From positions 1-37,057 of the IMG/VR virus record IMGVR_UViG_2648501920_000014: 37,057 bases of DNA; one strand, 5' to 3'. The position numbers were made by a program, and so were the translations under genes. This DNA is from a virus. Lineage: Duplodnaviria > Heunggongvirae > Uroviricota > Caudoviricetes. Within the stretch, counting starts at the first letter, position 1; each line of letters begins with the position of its first letter. A model generated the notes under the pieces. It had not been told where the DNA came from and searched no databases. It worked only from the letters and a program-made list of their open reading frames with translations. This document shows, piece by piece, positions 2,001-31,860 of the stretch.

Positions 2001-2297
2001 TCAAATAGAGAAATAAACACAAAAACAAAAAACAACAGGAACAGCAAAATCCAACAGACTTCCCACATCCCACACGCGTGGATCAAAACCTCCCCACCAC
2101 GGCATGTTGATACGTTTCCCTTTCCCAAACTTTTCTATCCAGCGATATTCTGCCTGGGTGTGTTCACGCGCAATGAAGAACGTACAACCGGCTATCGCAC
2201 CGTAAGCCCAGTTTCCGGTAAAAATACCAACCAGTACCTGAGCCACAAAAGCGCAAAGCGAGTGAAGAAATGGAGTGACATCAATGCTCTTAATCAT
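2001..2297 (-). CDS. Small hydrophobic membrane protein, function unknown
   Basis: ATG at 2297 overlapping tail fibre stop (ATGA); 98 aa, hydrophobic, AT-rich gene between tail fibre and lysis genes. Confidence 0.4.
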   Translation of the reverse strand: MIKSIDVTPFLHSLCAFVAQVLVGIFTGNWAYGAIAGCTFFIAREHTQAEYRWIEKFGKGKRINMPWWGGFDPRVWDVGSLLDFAVPVVFCFCVYFSI

Positions 2298-4483
2298 GAA
2301 ACTTCCCCATTGGTTGAAAATATGGCTCCTCCAACGCCAAGTGTATTTCGTGTTGTGCTCAACCTCAGAGGGCTGGAGTCAGAATTAGAATATCCTGTAG
2401 CAGAAATAAAAGATCCTCCACTAATAGTCAACTGCGGAACATCGGCTATATCTGAATAAGTTCTGTCAGCAACAGTATTATTTATAGCCACATATGATCC
2501 AAAAAAACTTCTTATTGTTTGGTTTTTAACTTTACTTCCTTCAATGGTTATCCTACTACCACAGTCGGCAATAAATCCTGAATCTGCATCCAGCGTTGCA
2601 TTCATAAAAGAAGCTTCAGATCTCTCTACATCAATCCATCTAATATCTTTTGTGGGATTTGCACCAAATACATGACAAATATTAGAGTTAAACCTTACAC
2701 CATCTTGGAGGTGCATTAATTTTTTTATATCTGTACCCCATAGCCTTGGAAAATTAACAGATGCTCCTGCATGGCAATCAAATCCCAGCTCAGCCCCTGA
2801 GATATCTACAGCCTTTCCTGAAATAACAGCACCAGTGTCTGCATTAACGGCTGTTCCACAATTGCGCATATCATTACCAGCAACATCAACGCAACCCGCA
2901 CCATCAATACGCACACCAAGTGCACATCCATAAAAACCTTTTTCAATATTTGGTTCAAGGACTTTACCACTTGTTTCTGCATCACTTTCTTCAACGTCAT
3001 GTCGTCTTGCATCAACATATGCTGTATGAATGCAGGTTAATCCACGATATGAGCAATGTATAGTTTTATGGTCGCGTATATTAACATTTGAACCATCTCT
3101 TACATTCCATCCTATATAACAATAGCTTGCACTTGACCCCTGAAAATCTGCTTTAACATTATAAATACAATTAACTGACGCAACCGTACTCTCTGTGCAC
3201 CGTTCAAACTTGCTTACAGGCATTGATGCCTTGACATTATTTACCAGTTGCAGGGAAGAGTATCTGCTATAAGAAAAATCACATACGTAATACCCTTCTG
3301 GCATATATGCAGCAACACTTTCCTCATCAGGAGCACATCCGGTATGATATGCACTAATTTTTGCACCAAAACTACCATGAATTCCAACGTAGAACTTTCG
3401 AGCACCTGAATACGGATAGAAATTAAGTTCAGCTTTTTGAGTTACAATAAATGCACAAACATCGCTATCATCTCTATTTTCTTCGATCTGAATAGCAAAT
3501 ACAGGACTTTTTGCTGCATCGCAAATGTAAAATAAATACTTGTATTCGTAATACGTTCTAACGATTTTAGTAAACAAACGAGTGTCAGAGAAAACCACTG
3601 AGTCTTCTGATGTTATTTTAATCCAAGACAAATCAACACCTGAACTGAATTCAATTTGATAGTTGATAATATGCCCGGTCTTAATTCTTATTTCGCAGAA
3701 AGCATTACCACCATCCCACATAGGTCTCATTGACTGGGCTGCAATGATTGCATCTTTGAGTGTAGGGTAATCACCCCATTCGCCAACAGTAATAACAAAA
3801 GTATAATATGAGTTAAAAACAGCGGCATTTTTGCCTTTGGATATCAACTCCTTAATCATAAAAATATTATCTTCGTAATCACAAGGAGAAATTATATCCC
3901 TCATTTTGCTTTGAAATGTTCGTTGTCTTGCCCCGCTTCCTGACGGTATAAACCAACCAAAACCACCAACAACCCCGGCGATTGCAGCATCGACATAATT
4001 ACGCATTGAGCGATTATTTACAGCGTCCTGCTCAAATGATGGATCTGCAAGGTTAGAAATTTTGTTTTGCTTTGCATCGTAATATTTTGCAAGCAAAGAT
4101 GGTTTCATCAATGCACGTCTGAACCACCCAAAACATCGCTGGATCAGCATCGTCAGGTAGTCAAATGCATCTTCATGAACTTCGGGGAAAAATTTTCCCT
4201 GATTGCGAAGATCAGTCTCCTGCACCACATCAAGCACACGCTCTATCGTAATTCGCCAGCCAGCAGCAAGCGGCGACGGGAGAACCACTTCACCGCCACT
4301 ATAAGTGCCCGCTCCAGTTACCTTATAACCGGTATCCAGAACCAATTCTGTTACGTTCCCGTTCAGGTCAGACACCTGAACAACCAGGTCGGTTTTTTTG
4401 AAAATACGGAAGGTATACGGAAATGATGTCGTAACGCCGTTACCGGTGTATTCGTTGTGGTCAACTTCGGTTGAGACCGTCAT
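2294..4483 (-). CDS. Tail fibre / tailspike with T7-type N-terminal anchor and beta-helix-like distal receptor-binding region
   Basis: ATG at 4483; first ~110 aa match the T7 tail-fibre N-terminal pattern; remainder is Gly/Asn/Asp/Val/Ile/Cys-rich and visibly AT-rich. Confidence 0.7.
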   Translation of the reverse strand: MTVSTEVDHNEYTGNGVTTSFPYTFRIFKKTDLVVQVSDLNGNVTELVLDTGYKVTGAGTYSGGEVVLPSPLAAGWRITIERVLDVVQETDLRNQGKFFPEVHEDAFDYLTMLIQRCFGWFRRALMKPSLLAKYYDAKQNKISNLADPSFEQDAVNNRSMRNYVDAAIAGVVGGFGWFIPSGSGARQRTFQSKMRDIISPCDYEDNIFMIKELISKGKNAAVFNSYYTFVITVGEWGDYPTLKDAIIAAQSMRPMWDGGNAFCEIRIKTGHIINYQIEFSSGVDLSWIKITSEDSVVFSDTRLFTKIVRTYYEYKYLFYICDAAKSPVFAIQIEENRDDSDVCAFIVTQKAELNFYPYSGARKFYVGIHGSFGAKISAYHTGCAPDEESVAAYMPEGYYVCDFSYSRYSSLQLVNNVKASMPVSKFERCTESTVASVNCIYNVKADFQGSSASYCYIGWNVRDGSNVNIRDHKTIHCSYRGLTCIHTAYVDARRHDVEESDAETSGKVLEPNIEKGFYGCALGVRIDGAGCVDVAGNDMRNCGTAVNADTGAVISGKAVDISGAELGFDCHAGASVNFPRLWGTDIKKLMHLQDGVRFNSNICHVFGANPTKDIRWIDVERSEASFMNATLDADSGFIADCGSRITIEGSKVKNQTIRSFFGSYVAINNTVADRTYSDIADVPQLTISGGSFISATGYSNSDSSPLRLSTTRNTLGVGGAIFSTNGEVS

Positions 4484-4587: not shown

Positions 4588-4602
4588 TTACCTTTCGGGT
4601 AA
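4588..4602. promoter_or_regulatory. Operator-like inverted repeat TTACC-TTTCG-GGTAA
   Basis: 15-bp dyad with A/T flanks; between tail fibre start (4483) and LexA box; one of at least 14 copies. Confidence 0.4.
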
Positions 4603-4641
4603 TTTGCAAAACGTGCTGGATAGCAAACAAATTATTTGATA

Positions 4642-4657
4642 CTGTATAAATATACAG
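4642..4657. promoter_or_regulatory. LexA (SOS) box CTGTATAAATATACAG
   Basis: Perfect CTGT-N8-ACAG with AT-only spacer, centre of an 18-bp near-palindrome; 21 nt upstream of ATG 4679. Confidence 0.6.
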
Positions 4658-4678
4658 TTATTGCATGGAGAAGATAAG

Positions 4679-4936
4679 ATGCAGCAGTATCACTATCCAC
4701 TGGAAGACGGATTTACCGAAAGGATTCACACGCCGGGAGGCGTCAGGTCACTGGTGGAGGGATCGCACTTGATGAAATTACTCCGGGATCTCGATAAGGA
4801 TGGATTTAATGTCGATGGCCCACTTGCCGAACTGACTGCACTAATTAACTACGTCACCAGCTCACAGATGTCTATGCGGGATCTGCAAACACATCTCGAC
4901 TATTGTGCCGAACAATTACGAAAACAAACCAGATAA
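4679..4936 (+). CDS. Small protein (85 aa), SOS-box-fronted; paralogue of the C-terminal domain of the adjacent Bro-N protein; candidate antirepressor
   Basis: ATG at 4679 with GGAG SD (track ORF begins at TTG 4661); stop TAA 4934-4936; by-eye alignment to Bro-N residues ~165-228. Confidence 0.55.
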   Translation: MQQYHYPLEDGFTERIHTPGGVRSLVEGSHLMKLLRDLDKDGFNVDGPLAELTALINYVTSSQMSMRDLQTHLDYCAEQLRKQTR

Positions 4937-4939
4937 GGT

Positions 4940-4968
4940 TTGCAATTACCAAATGGAGTGCTTATATT
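4940..4968 (+). promoter_or_regulatory. Sigma70-like promoter TTGCAA-17-TATATT
   Basis: -35 TTGCAA 4940-4945, 17-bp spacer, -10 TATATT 4963-4968; operator repeat overlaps the -10 end. Confidence 0.4.
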
Positions 4969-4982
4969 TACCTTTGCGGTAA
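4968..4982. promoter_or_regulatory. Operator-like inverted repeat TTACC-TTTGC-GGTAA
   Basis: 15-bp dyad overlapping the -10/+1 region of the promoter at 4940-4968. Confidence 0.4.
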
Positions 4983-5072
4983 ATTTACATCGCACTCCTC
5001 TTGTGCCATAGTAATCGGGCACTGGCAAAATCCAGTGCCGGGATTGGCGTCCCGGGTTACTAAGTGGCGCAT

Positions 5073-5096
5073 ACCACGCCAGACGTGGTTTTTTTA
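5073..5096 (+). terminator. Rho-independent terminator (ACCACG-CCAGA-CGTGGT + T-run)
   Basis: 6-bp stem, 5-nt loop, followed by 6-7 T; ends an ORF-free transcript of about 120 nt that starts near 4975. Confidence 0.5.
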
Positions 5097-5251
5097 TGCG
5101 TTAAGCACAGCTATATCCGAATTATGGTGGGCTGGGCAGGGGTCCGAAAGGACGCCGGTACCACTTAGGCCGGTACGCCAACCTTGTCCAGTTCACCACC
5201 AGTAATTGGCGTTGCGGTGGTGATTAAAATCACTAAGTGGAGATAACCACC

Positions 5252-5962
5252 ATGGCTAATGCTCAAACTGCCATCTTCAAATTTGAATCTGTTAACCCTA
5301 TCCGTTCCATCATTATCGATGGCCAACCATGGTTTGTAGCCCAAGACGTTTGTAGTGCGCTGCGTATCCAAAACGTCACCCAAGCACTTGAAAAACTGGA
5401 TGATGATGAAAGGTCTATGTTCAACATAGGGCATGAACATCGTGCAATTTTTGACAGCCGAGTAAAAGAGATCAACATCATCTCCGAGTCAGGCCTCTAC
5501 ACACTGATCCTCCGCTGCCGCGACGCAGTGACACCAGGCACTATCCCCTACCGCTTTCGTAAATGGGTTACAGGTGAGGTTCTTCCTCAGATCCGCCGCA
5601 CCGGAAGTTACATTAAAAACTCGCTCCCGCAGGAAGAACGCATAAAGATAGTTGCCGACCAGGTAGCCAACGCCACAGCATCAGCAGTGATGCAGGCAAT
5701 GAAGATAGAGAACAAAACCTACAGTGCCCCACTGAAGCCCGGCTACCGCAGCCTGATTCATTCTCCGTCTGGTGTTCTCGGCCTGACGGAGAACTCACTG
5801 CTGATGAATCTGCTGAACCAGTTACAGGAAGACGGGCACGACGTATCGGGCGCGGCGGCGGAGCTGACCACCATGTTCTGCTACATTGTTGGTGTGAGCA
5901 AATGCCTGCGTGATATCCAGACCCACGCGGAGTACATCAACGACAAGGCTGGGTTCTTCTGA
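5252..5962 (+). CDS. Bro-N domain protein (antirepressor-like) with C-terminal domain paralogous to the 4679-4936 product
   Basis: ATG at 5252 with GGAGA SD (track ORF begins at GTG 5237); N-terminal ~115 aa match the Bro-N pattern (WFVAQDVCSALRI, GLYTLIL, FRKWVTGEVLPQIRRTGSY). Confidence 0.7.
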   Translation: MANAQTAIFKFESVNPIRSIIIDGQPWFVAQDVCSALRIQNVTQALEKLDDDERSMFNIGHEHRAIFDSRVKEINIISESGLYTLILRCRDAVTPGTIPYRFRKWVTGEVLPQIRRTGSYIKNSLPQEERIKIVADQVANATASAVMQAMKIENKTYSAPLKPGYRSLIHSPSGVLGLTENSLLMNLLNQLQEDGHDVSGAAAELTTMFCYIVGVSKCLRDIQTHAEYINDKAGFF

Positions 5963-6034
5963 CGGGCGGCGGCACAGGGATGTGCCTTTAAATAATTCTG
6001 TACAGATTGCAGACTGTGGGTGAATAGCGTACTA

Positions 6035-6049
6035 TTACCTTAAAGGTAA
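6035..6049. promoter_or_regulatory. Operator-like inverted repeat TTACC-TTAAA-GGTAA
   Basis: Immediately upstream of GGAGG SD and ATG 6062; overlaps the -10 of a TTGCAG-17-TACTAT promoter (6007-6035). Confidence 0.4.
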
Positions 6050-6061
6050 AGGAGGCGCGAT

Positions 6062-6229
6062 ATGACAGCGTTGAAAAATCGTACTCAGCACAATGAACAA
6101 GCCAAGCAATGCTGGGATGTCATTGGAAAAGTTATGCTTGGCCGCGCAAGCAAAGAGCGCGACAAGGATATGGTTTACCAGACAGGAACATCTTTCAGCG
6201 ACTTCAAGGCGGCATTTCGCTCCAAATAG
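6062..6229 (+). CDS. Small protein (55 aa), unknown function; first gene of an AT-rich two-gene cassette
   Basis: ATG at 6062, GGAGG SD at 6051-6055, stop TAG 6227-6229; below the 60-aa track cutoff, read by hand. Confidence 0.4.
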   Translation: MTALKNRTQHNEQAKQCWDVIGKVMLGRASKERDKDMVYQTGTSFSDFKAAFRSK

Positions 6230-6249
6230 AAGCACATCAGGAGTTTTCC

Positions 6250-6690
6250 TTGAAGTTTAACATTAGAATATCTAATAGTTTTCTACATGGGGAAAGCAAC
6301 ACCCCTTTCGCTGTAGACGGACCTTTCCTTACTGATGATGAAATAAAAATCATACAAAGTTTTTTAGAGGATGTTGCCAATGGAAGGGCGCTTGTTGGAA
6401 AAAACAAGCCCTCGTGGGTTGATGATAACCATGATAAAATTCCCGGCTCAGACAATTATGAGCAAGAGAATTATTGGCATTATCATTGTGGGCCAACATG
6501 GTATCCAAACACATTTAAGAATTATACCATTAACTTAAATTTCAACCCTGGCGGAAGGCATTCTAATGAATGCATTCATTATGCAAAAAATGATAATGAA
6601 ATTGTCATTGTTGGATTTTCAAGAGAACACATACCTTTCCTTTCATCAGATGGAAACAACAATCCGCTTTTTAATGATGAAGAAGAATAG
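6250..6690 (+). CDS. Hypothetical protein (~146 aa), acidic C-terminus (NDEEE), AT-rich
   Basis: No internal Met; most plausible start is TTG 6250 with AGGAG SD at 6239-6243 (track ORF begins at ATG 6109, which would overlap the upstream gene); stop TAG 6688-6690. Confidence 0.45.
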   Translation: MKFNIRISNSFLHGESNTPFAVDGPFLTDDEIKIIQSFLEDVANGRALVGKNKPSWVDDNHDKIPGSDNYEQENYWHYHCGPTWYPNTFKNYTINLNFNPGGRHSNECIHYAKNDNEIVIVGFSREHIPFLSSDGNNNPLFNDEEE

Positions 6691-6711
6691 CCCGCGCTGC
6701 GGGCTTTTTTG
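6689..6711 (+). terminator. Rho-independent terminator (AGCCCGC-GCT-GCGGGCT + TTTTT)
   Basis: 7-bp GC-rich stem directly after the 6690 stop, followed by a T-run. Confidence 0.6.
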
Positions 6712-6782
6712 TGGGCGAAACAAAAGTCAGTGCTACACTCATTGACGCCACATTGAGGTGGCTTATAGATGGAAATTTCACA

Positions 6783-6944
6783 ATGAAAAAAGCATTTGCT
6801 GCACTGTTCGTTTTGTTGTCTCTGGTAGCTTCAACTCAGGCCTTTGCCGGTCGTTGTCAGCACGACAGCGACACTGCTGCTGACGGCTCCCGCTGCGGTG
6901 GGCGTTCTGCGGATTCCCGCCCTGGTGGCGGTGGCATTCGTTAA
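6783..6944 (+). CDS. Small secreted peptide precursor (53 aa; signal peptide plus ~31-aa Gly/Cys-containing mature part)
   Basis: ATG at 6783; MKKAFAALFVLLSLVASTQAFA looks like a Sec signal peptide with an AFA-G cleavage site; stop TAA 6942-6944; SD is weak. Confidence 0.4.
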   Translation: MKKAFAALFVLLSLVASTQAFAGRCQHDSDTAADGSRCGGRSADSRPGGGGIR

Positions 6945-6982: not shown

Positions 6983-7396
6983 TTATAAAGATGACTGATA
7001 TTTTACAACTCTGTTCATGGCATCTTTTTTCACCGAGCTGATATCAGTTCTTATTTTGGCTTCGTCATTACTGCTTATCATGCTATTAATTTTTTGCACT
7101 GACATGCCGTTTCTTTCAGCCATTGCACATACAGCAGCATCGTATGAAGAACTCGCTGCGATGGATATCACCTTGTTACACTCAAACACAGCACCTTCAG
7201 CAATATCAGATGCCGATGAGGCTGGCTTGGTATAAGTCTTGACGTAGTGATCAATACAACTATCCTTCGCCGTCTTGGCAAGAGAAAAATCCATTTTAAC
7301 TTTGTCGCAATATGCCTTATCAACACCGTCATAAACATCATAGGATGTCGAGCAAGCGGATATCAAAAATACCGATAACAGCAATAATTCCTTCAT
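6983..7396 (-). CDS. Lipoprotein (137 aa), AT-rich accessory gene
   Basis: ATG at 7396; signal peptide MKELLLLSVFLISAC with lipobox ISAC; visibly lower GC than flanking virion genes. Confidence 0.6.
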   Translation of the reverse strand: MKELLLLSVFLISACSTSYDVYDGVDKAYCDKVKMDFSLAKTAKDSCIDHYVKTYTKPASSASDIAEGAVFECNKVISIAASSSYDAAVCAMAERNGMSVQKINSMISSNDEAKIRTDISSVKKDAMNRVVKYQSSL

Positions 7397-23494: not shown

Positions 23495-23571
23495 GTGGCA
23501 TTAGCTCAGTCGGACAGAGCAACCGCCTTCTAAGCGGTTGGTCGCAGGTTCGAATCCTGCATGCCACGCCA
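23495..23571 (+). tRNA. tRNA-Arg (anticodon TCT, reads AGA)
   Basis: Cloverleaf read by hand: acceptor GTGGCAT/ATGCCAC, D-stem GCTC/GAGC, anticodon stem ACCGC/GCGGT with loop CTTCTAA, T-arm GCAGG-TTCGAAT-CCTGC, discriminator G, encoded CCA. Confidence 0.85.
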
Positions 23572-31023: not shown

Positions 31024-31086
31024 TCACCCATAAGGTAACAAAAATCAAGGATAGTTACCTATGAGGTGCATTTACCTGTTGGGTAA
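31024..31086. promoter_or_regulatory. Operator cluster (OR-like): three inverted repeats between the cro-like and repressor genes
   Basis: TCACC-CATAA-GGTAA (31024-31038), TTACC-TATGA-GGTGC (31055-31069), TTACC-TGTTG-GGTAA (31072-31086); last two abut. Confidence 0.5.
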
Positions 31087-31141: not shown

Positions 31142-31726
31142 ATGAAAAGTATCCAGGACGTCCGCAGGCAAAATCTCAACGACTTGATCGACCGTGAATT
31201 CAATGGTGTTCAGACGCGGATGGCAGAAAAACTTGGAACTCAGGCAAATCTGGTAAACCGCTGGGCTCTTGGCAAGAAGGTTATCGGCGACCAGGTTGCG
31301 CGAAAAATTGAAGCTGCCGCCAATAAACCACGTAACTGGCTTGATATCGATCGCTCGCTTTCTCAGGAAGGTTTTCAGCCTGTCGGCCCAAGCGACATTG
31401 GTCAGCTGGCGGCTCACAACCTGGAACGCTGGATGAGCGAAAGCCGCGACCTTTCAACACAGGGAAAACTTCACCGCGCATCCGGCGTCGCCCAGGTGAC
31501 AATCAGCCGCCTGTTAAACAATGAGGTCAGCGTTTCCATTTCCACCCTGGAGAATGTTGCATCCGCATTCGGGCGTCACGGCTATGAATTACTGATTCAC
31601 CCGCACGACCCTGCGACCATCAACTATGACCGCTCGCGCTACGCATTGTTACCCGAAACCGAGAAAGCAAAGATCGAAAGTTACATTGAATTTGTCATCA
31701 ACCAGAACGAAAAAAACAAACAATAA
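31142..31726 (+). CDS. Phage repressor with two HTH domains and no S24 autocleavage domain
   Basis: ATG at 31142; two HTH-like segments (LGTQANLVNRWALGKKVIGDQVARKIEAAANKPRNWLD and ASGVAQVTISRLLNNEVSVSISTLENVASAFG); no Ala-Gly cleavage site or Ser/Lys dyad seen; stop TAA 31724-31726. Confidence 0.65.
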   Translation: MKSIQDVRRQNLNDLIDREFNGVQTRMAEKLGTQANLVNRWALGKKVIGDQVARKIEAAANKPRNWLDIDRSLSQEGFQPVGPSDIGQLAAHNLERWMSESRDLSTQGKLHRASGVAQVTISRLLNNEVSVSISTLENVASAFGRHGYELLIHPHDPATINYDRSRYALLPETEKAKIESYIEFVINQNEKNKQ

Positions 31727-31783: not shown

Positions 31784-31860
31784 TTACCTTACGGGTAATT
31801 TTTTTAACTCATATCTATTGACATCAAACCAAATACGAATAATCATTACCTCAACGGTAA
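31784..31860. promoter_or_regulatory. OL-like region: two operator repeats flanking a TTGACA promoter
   Basis: TTACC-TTACG-GGTAA (31784-31798), -35 TTGACA (31818-31823), TTACC-TCAAC-GGTAA (31846-31860) over the likely -10/+1; followed by GAGG SD and ATG 31880. Confidence 0.5.

Follow-up and report, generated by a model that had tools for sequence, protein, structure and literature searches.

We describe a two-gene cassette in a 37,057-nucleotide stretch of tailed-phage DNA (IMG/VR record IMGVR_UViG_2648501920_000014, positions 1 to 37,057; hereafter the window). With modest confidence, we read the cassette as a repressor-gated, type-II-like toxin-antitoxin (TA) pair, in which the downstream protein, OrfB, would be a histidine-dependent RNase and the upstream protein, OrfA, its neutralizer. 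The gene structures, the fold similarity of OrfB, the conservation of the pair, the exchangeable slot in which it lies, the identity of its operator and the induction of its transcript in serum are directly supported. Both genes are on the + strand. Ahead of them are a promoter, which is weak, and a perfect palindrome of 15 bp; behind them is a strong terminator (Table 1). The window is in essence Escherichia phage phiv142-3 (MN187550; genus Uetakevirus, epsilon15/phiV10-like): over the 721 bases around the cassette, identity to this phage is 99.9%, and identity to an E. coli chromosome is 100%. What appears to be new is a RelE-fold family that had no prior annotation, together with its conserved partner; the toxin-antitoxin kind itself is known.

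Predicted fold of OrfB and conservation of the pair

We compared an AlphaFold2 (AF2) model of OrfB (predicted local distance difference test score, pLDDT, 92.3; predicted template modeling score, pTM, 0.86) with the structures in the PDB, and observed that RelE/ParE-superfamily proteins took 26 of the 27 top places. Further down the ranking were microbial RNases, namely RNase Sa, colicins E5 and D, and CdiA toxins. The modeled chain runs as a strand, two helices and four strands, and is interrupted by insertions at residues ~55-74 and ~80-106. By this model, OrfB has a divergent form of the RelE/ParE fold that carries two insertions, and so belongs structurally to a known toxin superfamily, as a type II toxin would. 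RelE, YoeB, YafQ and HigB are shorter, at ~85-95 amino acids (aa) versus 146 aa for OrfB with its two insertions.

The residues that are conserved in the family point to an active site. H77, H79 and H127 are invariant across 94 representatives with identity down to 21%; N52, K53, S55, Y78, Y111 and F130 are kept in 90% or more of them, F11 and G50 are nearly invariant, and the conserved motifs read GKNKPSW, YWHYHCG, IHY and HxPF. The invariant histidines and the other conserved residues together amount to enzyme-like conservation. In the AF2 model, H77 and H79 are on a strand and H127 is just after the last strand, as fits a RelE-type interferase, and the catalytic residues of YafQ and YoeB sit at positions equivalent to these histidines. 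OrfB is most likely an endoribonuclease that would act via a His77-x-His79 ... His127 site. However, it differs from the RelE-type interferases in having no detectable sequence similarity to them, in the HxH...H signature and in its charge. OrfB is acidic (isoelectric point, pI, 4.9; range in the family 4.8-10.7), which does not match the basic surface of those enzymes and argues against a canonical ribosomal A-site nuclease.

At the level of sequence, OrfB belongs to a family without annotation. It had no Pfam match at E up to 1 and none in NCBIfam or PADLOC, and 94 distant relatives had no Pfam match at E up to 0.01. The RelE/ParE family profiles (ParE_toxin, YoeB_toxin, YafQ_toxin, HigB-like) did not reach threshold with OrfB, and YafO_toxin (PF13957) matched neither OrfB nor its 94 relatives. 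A profile search of PDB sequences returned no toxin and only a cytochrome c555 trimer, which is a repeat artefact, and a fold search of BFVD gave no match. OrfA likewise has no family in Pfam, NCBIfam or PADLOC, including no helix-turn-helix (HTH), ribbon-helix-helix (RHH), AbrB or Phd match. Each protein falls in a PHROG without assigned function (phrog_8607 for OrfA). The first-pass annotation, made from the letters of the window alone, had recognized neither protein. The OrfB family comprises 34 clusters by a word-indexed search (Enterobacterales and Pasteurellaceae) and 118 representatives by an exhaustive profile search (clusters at 50% identity). Its members occur in prophages of Enterobacterales, Pasteurellaceae, Neisseriaceae and Aeromonas, at 19 genome loci and 76 loci on viral contigs from IMG/VR.

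OrfB does not travel alone. An upstream open reading frame (ORF) on the same strand abuts orfB at each of the 100 loci with an orfB relative, across several phage types and bacterial orders; in relatives, the gap ranges from -29 to +31 nt. In the window, orfA and orfB are separated by 20 nt and each has its own Shine-Dalgarno sequence, so that the genes are adjacent and co-directional with a short gap and probably share a transcript, as is typical of type II TA pairs. The pair is found in the ant/tailspike slot of epsilon15-like prophages (E. coli, Pectobacterium; ant is the antirepressor gene), in the nin region of lambdoid prophages (Klebsiella), and, in P2/Mu-like prophages of Pasteurellaceae, between the genes for the tape measure and the baseplate spike, where a terminator is found at the stop codon; one pair of the OrfB family sits after a MuF polyvalent protein. 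These differing contexts suggest that the pair moves between them as a unit.

The partner is far more variable than OrfB. By its own sequence, OrfA found only close relatives; clear homologues upstream of distant orfB genes are a 56-aa protein in the same slot in Pectobacterium, proteins of 58-92 aa in Erwinia, and in Klebsiella the C-terminal half of a 102-aa gene. A four-member OrfA profile, run against 2,862 ORF segments, hit nothing further except the upstream genes, of 184-185 aa, in prophages of Haemophilus and Necropsobacter (E 8e-4 to 0.02), and iteration added the Actinobacillus and Canicola partners. We regard the homology of OrfA to the Pasteurellaceae partners as probable rather than certain. 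Those partners are 159-211 aa long (loci L012, L016 and L018-L024, at ~2415-2996, and L010, L013-L015 and L017). Their N-terminus has a hydrophobic segment that resembles a signal peptide or membrane anchor (e.g., MTNLSLNPIFESFAPIFKQLKTAAMSALFIAPLA), as would be unusual for an antitoxin. In every partner lineage the C-terminus reads ...R-x(7-10)-[FY]-x(3-4)-[ST]-[FH]-x-[DE]-[DE]-[FIL]... after variable N-termini, which range from 0 to ~150 residues in OrfA-type partners; the conserved C-terminal segment of OrfA reads ...GR...Y..G[ST]SFxDF.... A short conserved C-terminal segment after a variable N-terminus is also a feature of RelBE-type antitoxins.

OrfA itself is basic (pI 9.8) and helical, and its AF2 model (pLDDT 70) has a helix at residues 2-30, a linker and a helix at 45-53. 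Two helices and a linker in 55 aa leave no room for a DNA-binding domain, and a profile search for more relatives found only a few, none with such a domain. OrfA is thus not the autoregulating DNA-binding antitoxin of a standard type II system, and this agrees with an operator that is the phage repressor's own.

A repressor operator at an exchangeable cargo slot

The palindrome ahead of orfA is one of many in the window. The motif TTACC-N5-GGTAA occurs in 13 copies at no more than one mismatch, versus 0.52 expected and never more than two in shuffled sequences (window positions 4588, 4968, 6035, 23158, 26225, 26243, 28679, 28741, 30687, 31024, 31072, 31784 and 31846). The copies at 31024 and 31072, with visibly similar sequence between them, separate a divergent 76-aa cro-like gene from a 194-aa HTH_3 gene, and a further two lie on either side of a near-consensus promoter, TTGACA-16-TAATCA, a short way downstream of this repressor gene. 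The 194-aa protein is Orf43 of phiv142-3, annotated as "putative repressor". Its sequence is reported to be the same as that of the vB_EcoP_ZX5 repressor, whose overexpression blocked the lytic cycle (PMC9782041). In Pectobacterium (locus L009), the operator motif is 25 nt ahead of the partner gene and occurs in four copies in 8.4 kb versus 0.17 expected. Judged by sequence, the cassette operator is a copy of the operator of the phage immunity repressor, which presumably binds it, and the gate is part of the main circuit of the phage and not the cassette's own.

By itself, the cassette promoter is not above chance, because it matches 7 of the 12 consensus positions, is absent from the list of a consensus scan, and that scan found no excess of promoter-like sites in the region (8 versus 5.4 +/- 2.5 in shuffles). 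It is nevertheless plausible, because its geometry is shared with two other operator-bearing promoters, it is kept in E. coli prophages with other cargo, and an operator precedes the Pectobacterium homologue. The parallel layouts, each with the operator directly after the promoter, are the predicted ant promoter TTGCAA-17-TATATT (4940-4968; operator at 4968-4982) and TTGACA-16-TAATCA ending at 31845; in all three cases the operator either starts at the final base of the -10 element or overlaps that base. The first-pass annotation had placed the dyad over the -10 element. The palindrome is real and perfect, but it shares only the final T of the -10 element and covers the expected transcription start. 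We accepted the description of the cassette as operator-gated because of the enrichment of the motif, the sites at the repressor gene, the shared promoter geometry and the Pectobacterium copy.

Some operator copies are far from the repressor gene: ahead of the terminase genes, in the interval from replication gene P to a DUF1064 gene, and close to the tRNA. This suggests that the repressor, or a second protein of the same specificity, controls many promoters.

The same promoter and terminator enclose different genes in sister prophages. With the same flanks, locus L003 carries a 108-aa gene and a 170-aa "YafO family toxin", L004 a 181-aa YafO-like toxin, and L031 a 251-aa protein of no recognized family. 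The toxins are sub-threshold YafO matches only (19.7 and 23.4 bits versus a cut-off of 25). The promoter region is 94-98% identical in the related prophages that carry different cargo, and the terminator is common to prophages with DUF2335 or other cargo; in a different prophage (L030), the terminator and a 53-aa gene lie beside a DUF2335 gene. Homology with L003 and L004 stops at 6050 and 6053, which marks the left recombination joint, and homology with other-cargo prophages resumes at 6667-6705 on the right. Of 5,426 complete E. coli genomes, 77 carried the cassette, and ~150 more matched only the promoter/operator or only the terminator.

We also observed that L004 (3784-3810) resumes homology at 6667-6690, 24 nt ahead of the orfB stop codon. 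The joint therefore lies within coding sequence, and two unrelated putative toxin genes share their last codons, which encode the acidic tail, as well as the terminator.

The composition of the insert is uneven. The GC content of orfB is 35.6% (30.6% at third codon positions, GC3), low against 48.8% for the window as the first-pass annotation had claimed for the whole cassette, but orfA is ordinary at 47.0% (GC3 53.6%). A similar split between the two genes is a tendency in Pectobacterium and Erwinia, not in Klebsiella or Pasteurellaceae. The cassette has the marks of a phage moron, with its own promoter and terminator, conserved flanks, swapped cargo, patchy presence and the deviating GC content of orfB. 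On these comparisons of sequence, it is an exchangeable, separately acquired accessory insert in the immI-like region of an epsilon15/phiV10-like prophage; the earlier suggestion of a separately acquired insert holds, as sister prophages keep the flanks and carry other cargo between ~6050 and ~6680.

Table 1. Coordinates of the cassette and its presumed repressor in the window
Feature	Position	Strand	Details and basis
Putative sigma-70 promoter	6007..6035	+	TTGCAG 6007-6012, 17-nt spacer, TACTAT 6030-6035; read from sequence
Operator, perfect palindrome TTACCTT-A-AAGGTAA	6035..6049	.	Inverted repeat; copy of the phage-wide TTACC-N5-GGTAA
orfA Shine-Dalgarno, GGAGG	6051..6055	+	6 bases ahead of ATG 6062; sequence
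orfA, 55 aa, proposed antitoxin/neutralizer	6062..6229	+	ORF list
orfB Shine-Dalgarno, AGGAG	6239..6243	+	6 nt ahead of TTG 6250; sequence
orfB, 146 aa, ends NDEEE, proposed endoribonuclease toxin	6250..6690	+	RelE/ParE-like fold
"orf10" of MN187550 (QGF19616), 52 aa	6380..6538	+	Mis-annotation, out of frame within orfB
Intrinsic terminator, stem AGCCCGC-GCT-GCGGGCT + T6	6689..6711	+	Terminator scan; overlaps orfB stop codon
Immunity repressor gene (HTH_3, without peptidase domain)	31142..31726	+	Pfam HTH_3, E 1.2e-9; presumed operator binder

The promoter, both ribosome-binding sites, both reading frames, the acidic end of OrfB and the terminator, as read in the first pass, are all in the sequence. 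The TTG start of orfB is also the RefSeq start (WP_000671198), and homologues begin there with MKF or MKI. The sole in-frame ATG, at 6109, was rejected as a start; it would overlap orfA, the extension is unconserved, and homologues start at the TTG. The terminator stem has 7 bp, of which six are G-C pairs (6689-6705), and is followed by TTTTTT. Rfam found no known RNA within the cassette; a Trp-leader match at 6606-6712 (E 0.37) is accounted for by the terminator.

One flank of the cassette comprises the tailspike gene (- strand, 2294-4483) together with a 91-aa gene and the gene of the BRO-N antirepressor (5237-5962). The other flank comprises genes for a 53-aa secreted peptide and a lipoprotein, and long genes for virion and ejection proteins (- strand). 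A near-perfect LexA (SOS) box, TACTGTATAAATATACAGTT, is at 4640-4659, just upstream of the 91-aa gene (4661-4936; 85 aa in the RefSeq version), and the C-terminal half of the 91-aa protein resembles the C-terminus of the BRO-N antirepressor (phrog_450, phrog_15539). This gene looks like a Tum-type, SOS-controlled small antirepressor, a reading that would fit a repressor without a peptidase domain. Between the operator-bearing promoter at 4940-4982 and ant, Rfam placed a1/b1 target sites (5006-5058), an IsrK-like RNA (5019-5095) and a C4 antisense RNA (5120-5203), the set of the P1/P7-type immI antisense control of an antirepressor, here in a podovirus.

The 53-aa gene (6783-6944) has a clear signal peptide (MKKAFAALFVLLSLVASTQAFA...) and belongs to phrog_14503, "membrane associated protein". 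It is identical (WP_000708858) beside every alternative cargo examined in the epsilon15-like slot, and the 53-aa gene at the matching position in L030 is WP_042043825. The next gene encodes a predicted 137-aa lipoprotein (6983-7396, - strand) with an LISAC lipobox; it falls in phrog_8691, with no function assigned, and its match to T4 Spackle is very weak (E 0.82). The position of the lipoprotein gene is taken in sister prophages by genes of 98 aa or 283 aa, which makes it a second variable accessory slot. A tRNA-Arg gene (anticodon TCT; 23495-23571) lies among the late genes and is annotated in the phiv142-3 record too.

The "orf10" experiments and the competing explanations

The locus has been studied experimentally under another name. 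The GenBank record of phiv142-3 (MN187550) omits orfB and instead calls a nested 52-aa "Orf10". We rejected the nested ORF as a real gene, as stop codons interrupt its frame in each of the five homologues checked; its closure in homologues argues that the phenotype published for orf10 belongs to orfB. The published lambda-Red arms map to 6320-6379 and 6539-6598, so that the deleted segment is exactly 6380-6538. In the mutant, orfA is thus intact but orfB is missing codons 44-97, and with them GKNKPSW and WHYHCG. The orf10 paper was the only one that turned up when the literature was searched for the accessions and for studies of toxin-antitoxin systems in Uetakevirus. The first-pass view of the cassette as undescribed holds for the protein family, which is without annotation anywhere, but not for the locus.

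The lysogen deleted for "orf10" was viable and grew normally in LB medium (PMC7724020), as expected on removing a toxin gene with its antitoxin gene intact. In serum, the mutant gave a lower yield with ~60% survival, and kps transcripts were down ~2-fold; loads in the blood and heart of chickens were also lower, and the effects were complemented (PMC7724020). The complementing fragment was described only as "coding sequence and putative promoter" (PMC7724020).

The same study found "orf10" among the most serum-induced prophage genes, at log2 +4.12, i.e., ~17-fold (Li et al., PMC7724020). The other top genes were orf41 (log2 +4.56) and orf40 (log2 +3.68) (PMC7724020), which are promoter-proximal early genes adjoining the cro-like gene. 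The ant gene, immediately upstream of the cassette, rose by only log2 +1.31 (PMC7724020), which argues for a derepressible promoter of the cassette's own. The serum induction of the cassette looks like derepression of a separate operator-controlled promoter. That the cassette is expressed on derepression had been proposed from its layout, and the copied immunity-repressor operator and the 2^4.12-fold rise in serum along with the early genes agree with this.

In the mechanism that we infer, OrfB would be toxic, cutting RNA through its His77-x-His79 ... His127 site, and OrfA, a helix-linker-helix protein, would neutralize OrfB by binding via its conserved C-terminal segment. Transcription would start from the weak promoter at a site under the immunity-repressor operator, to which the repressor would bind, with no autoregulation by the antitoxin. 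With a repressor operator on the start site, the pair would be low in a stable lysogen and would come on, as would ant and the early genes, once the repressor has been removed, or in a newly infected cell in which the repressor has yet to build up. The role would likely be in conflict or competition, i.e., abortive infection, exclusion of other phages, or an aid to host shut-down during induction.

The occurrence of YafO-like toxins with the same slot and promoter in sister prophages counts for a TA pair. The toxin-immunity layout named in the first pass also fits the RelE/ParE fold of OrfB and the conserved upstream partner. Several observations weigh on the other side. No sequence method, whether Pfam, NCBIfam, PADLOC or the profile search of PDB sequences, ties OrfB to any toxin family, and Foldseek ranks the same RelE/ParE proteins first at E-values that are all above 0.4. 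An hhalign comparison with the YafO-like proteins of the slot paired WHYH with RKVHV and TS..IHY with PTSN..LIY; it was not significant (E 0.43, probability 0.13%, and E 0.22), with only three sequences in the template alignment, which leaves room for a distant relationship, and pairwise BLASTP between OrfB and these toxins gave no match. The charges run opposite to those of RelBE (OrfB acidic, OrfA basic), and GC3 differs strongly between the genes (54% in orfA versus 31% in orfB). The link from OrfA to the long Pasteurellaceae partners is marginal, since an iterated search with a larger ORF background did not recover them. A repressor-gated promoter, which would keep the module low in the stable lysogen, is unexpected for a defense module pre-loaded there. 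In the serum transcriptome, orfA was not among the 14 significantly induced genes (PMC7724020), and the reported serum and kps phenotype is mild rather than a classical TA phenotype.

That phenotype raises an alternative that we consider unlikely, in which OrfB is a non-toxic regulatory or host-modulating RNase-fold conversion factor, acting for example on K1 capsule genes to confer serum resistance, with OrfA as its cofactor or chaperone. The complemented effects of the 6380-6538 deletion on serum survival (~60%), kps transcripts (~2-fold) and chicken loads, and the normal growth of the mutant in LB (PMC7724020), speak for such a factor, as does the acidity of OrfB, in which it differs from ribosome-dependent toxins. 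However, the effects are small and were ascribed to the wrong reading frame, with a loosely defined complementing fragment. The slot holds toxin-type cargo in sister phages, and one would not look for a conversion gene behind a repressor-gated promoter. Strict pairing in which the partner retains only a short C-terminal motif is, moreover, typical of neutralization rather than of a cofactor.

Phage T4 RegB is an early-gene endoribonuclease of ~150 aa with a RelE/YoeB-like fold and a dependence on histidine. OrfB is alike in being phage-encoded, in its RelE-like fold, similar size and histidines, and in its early or derepressed expression, and would be alike in function if it is an RNase as presumed. 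It could then be a nuclease of the lytic program that cuts host or early phage mRNAs and speeds the take-over, with OrfA as a timing inhibitor and no role in addiction or defense. The operator over the transcription start ties expression to derepression, the cassette is induced in serum along with the early genes, and the Pasteurellaceae pair sits in late or structural gene clusters, all of which favor this possibility; we hold it to be distinctly unlikely.

The first-pass annotation had also proposed anti-restriction or anti-defense, whereby OrfB would inactivate a host defense early after infection. Expression before the repressor accumulates would suit this role, as would the acidic C-terminal tail of OrfB, but we judge it very unlikely. 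Neither cassette protein resembles an anti-restriction or anti-defense family in Pfam, PHROGs, NCBIfam or PADLOC, and neither they nor the alternative cargo match a PADLOC-DB v2 defense model at E up to 1. DNA mimics and other anti-restriction proteins (ArdA, Ocr and similar) gave no family match, and the predicted fold of OrfB is an alpha/beta RNase-toxin fold rather than that of a mimic. The acidic run is confined to the last four residues of OrfB, and the conserved two-protein pairing would go unexplained. Least probable of all is a reversed polarity in the order of HicAB or MqsRA, with OrfA as toxin and OrfB as antitoxin or immunity protein: a small basic protein does precede a larger acidic one, and HicA and HicB resemble OrfA and OrfB in size, but the toxin fold and three invariant histidines are in OrfB, OrfA is antitoxin-like in its variable N-terminus and in its poor conservation outside the C-terminal motif, Pfam found no HicA or HicB match, and deletion of orfB was tolerated with orfA intact.

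Related systems and implications

The TA reading has a precedent in PaaR2-PaaA2-ParE2, a three-component TA system of E. coli O157:H7 prophages in which a separate phage-type repressor controls transcription. The PaaA2 antitoxin is ~60 aa, helical, largely unstructured and without a DNA-binding domain. PDB entries 5czf and 5cw7, of ParE2-PaaA2, were both among the fold-search hits of OrfB. To our knowledge, this is the closest precedent for TA transcription that is delegated to a separate repressor, and it indicates that DNA binding and autoregulation by the antitoxin are not universal in type II TA systems. The cassette is alike in being prophage-borne, with a putative RelE/ParE-fold toxin, a very small helical putative antitoxin and a separate repressor. 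It differs in that the regulator is the main immunity repressor, encoded 25 kb away, and no dedicated third gene is present; the histidines of OrfB suggest a nuclease rather than a ParE-type gyrase poison, and the two systems have no sequence relationship. From RelE-type TA systems the cassette differs in the partner without a DNA-binding domain and in the operator that belongs to the phage repressor. The sister-slot cassettes of YafO type (yafNO type) share with it the flanks, the promoter/operator and the terminator region, and are likewise two-gene cassettes of similar overall size with the toxin second.

The surroundings resemble the immI region of phage P1, where a C1-controlled promoter and the C4 antisense RNA precede icd/ant, followed by C1-controlled kilA-repL. 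In the window, too, a repressor-operated promoter, C4 target sites, an IsrK/C4 RNA and ant are followed by a second operator-controlled promoter with potentially harmful genes. Unlike P1, the phage is a podovirus with another repressor and operator sequence, and the cargo is a TA-like pair rather than kilA-repL.

A broader proposal, which we consider rather doubtful, is that temperate phages of several types carry swappable pairs of an RNase toxin and its inhibitor as effectors under immunity-repressor control, silent in the lysogen and firing on derepression or entry. If so, the TA-like module would serve the program of induction or infection and not autoregulated addiction or stand-by defense. 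It would commit the cell, shut down the translation of the host or of rival phages, or reshape host transcripts such as those of capsule genes, and OrfB would define a new branch of the RelE fold that is acidic, depends on histidine and acts in a non-ribosomal mode.

Overall, a family of 118 representative clusters at 50% identity, with no function in databases, gains a testable one. The "virulence gene" orf10 of avian pathogenic E. coli (APEC) is an out-of-frame artefact, and the serum-sensitive mutant lacked the core of a RelE-fold protein; the proposed mechanism of a 52-aa regulator of capsule genes needs re-examination, and the MN187550 record and PMC7724020 need correction. For the immunity repressor of epsilon15/phiV10-like phages, an operator motif, TTACC-N5-GGTAA, can now be given. 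The repressor-gated cargo slot beside ant accepts alternative toxin modules, and offers a convenient natural system for asking what non-autoregulated TA pairs do for phages.

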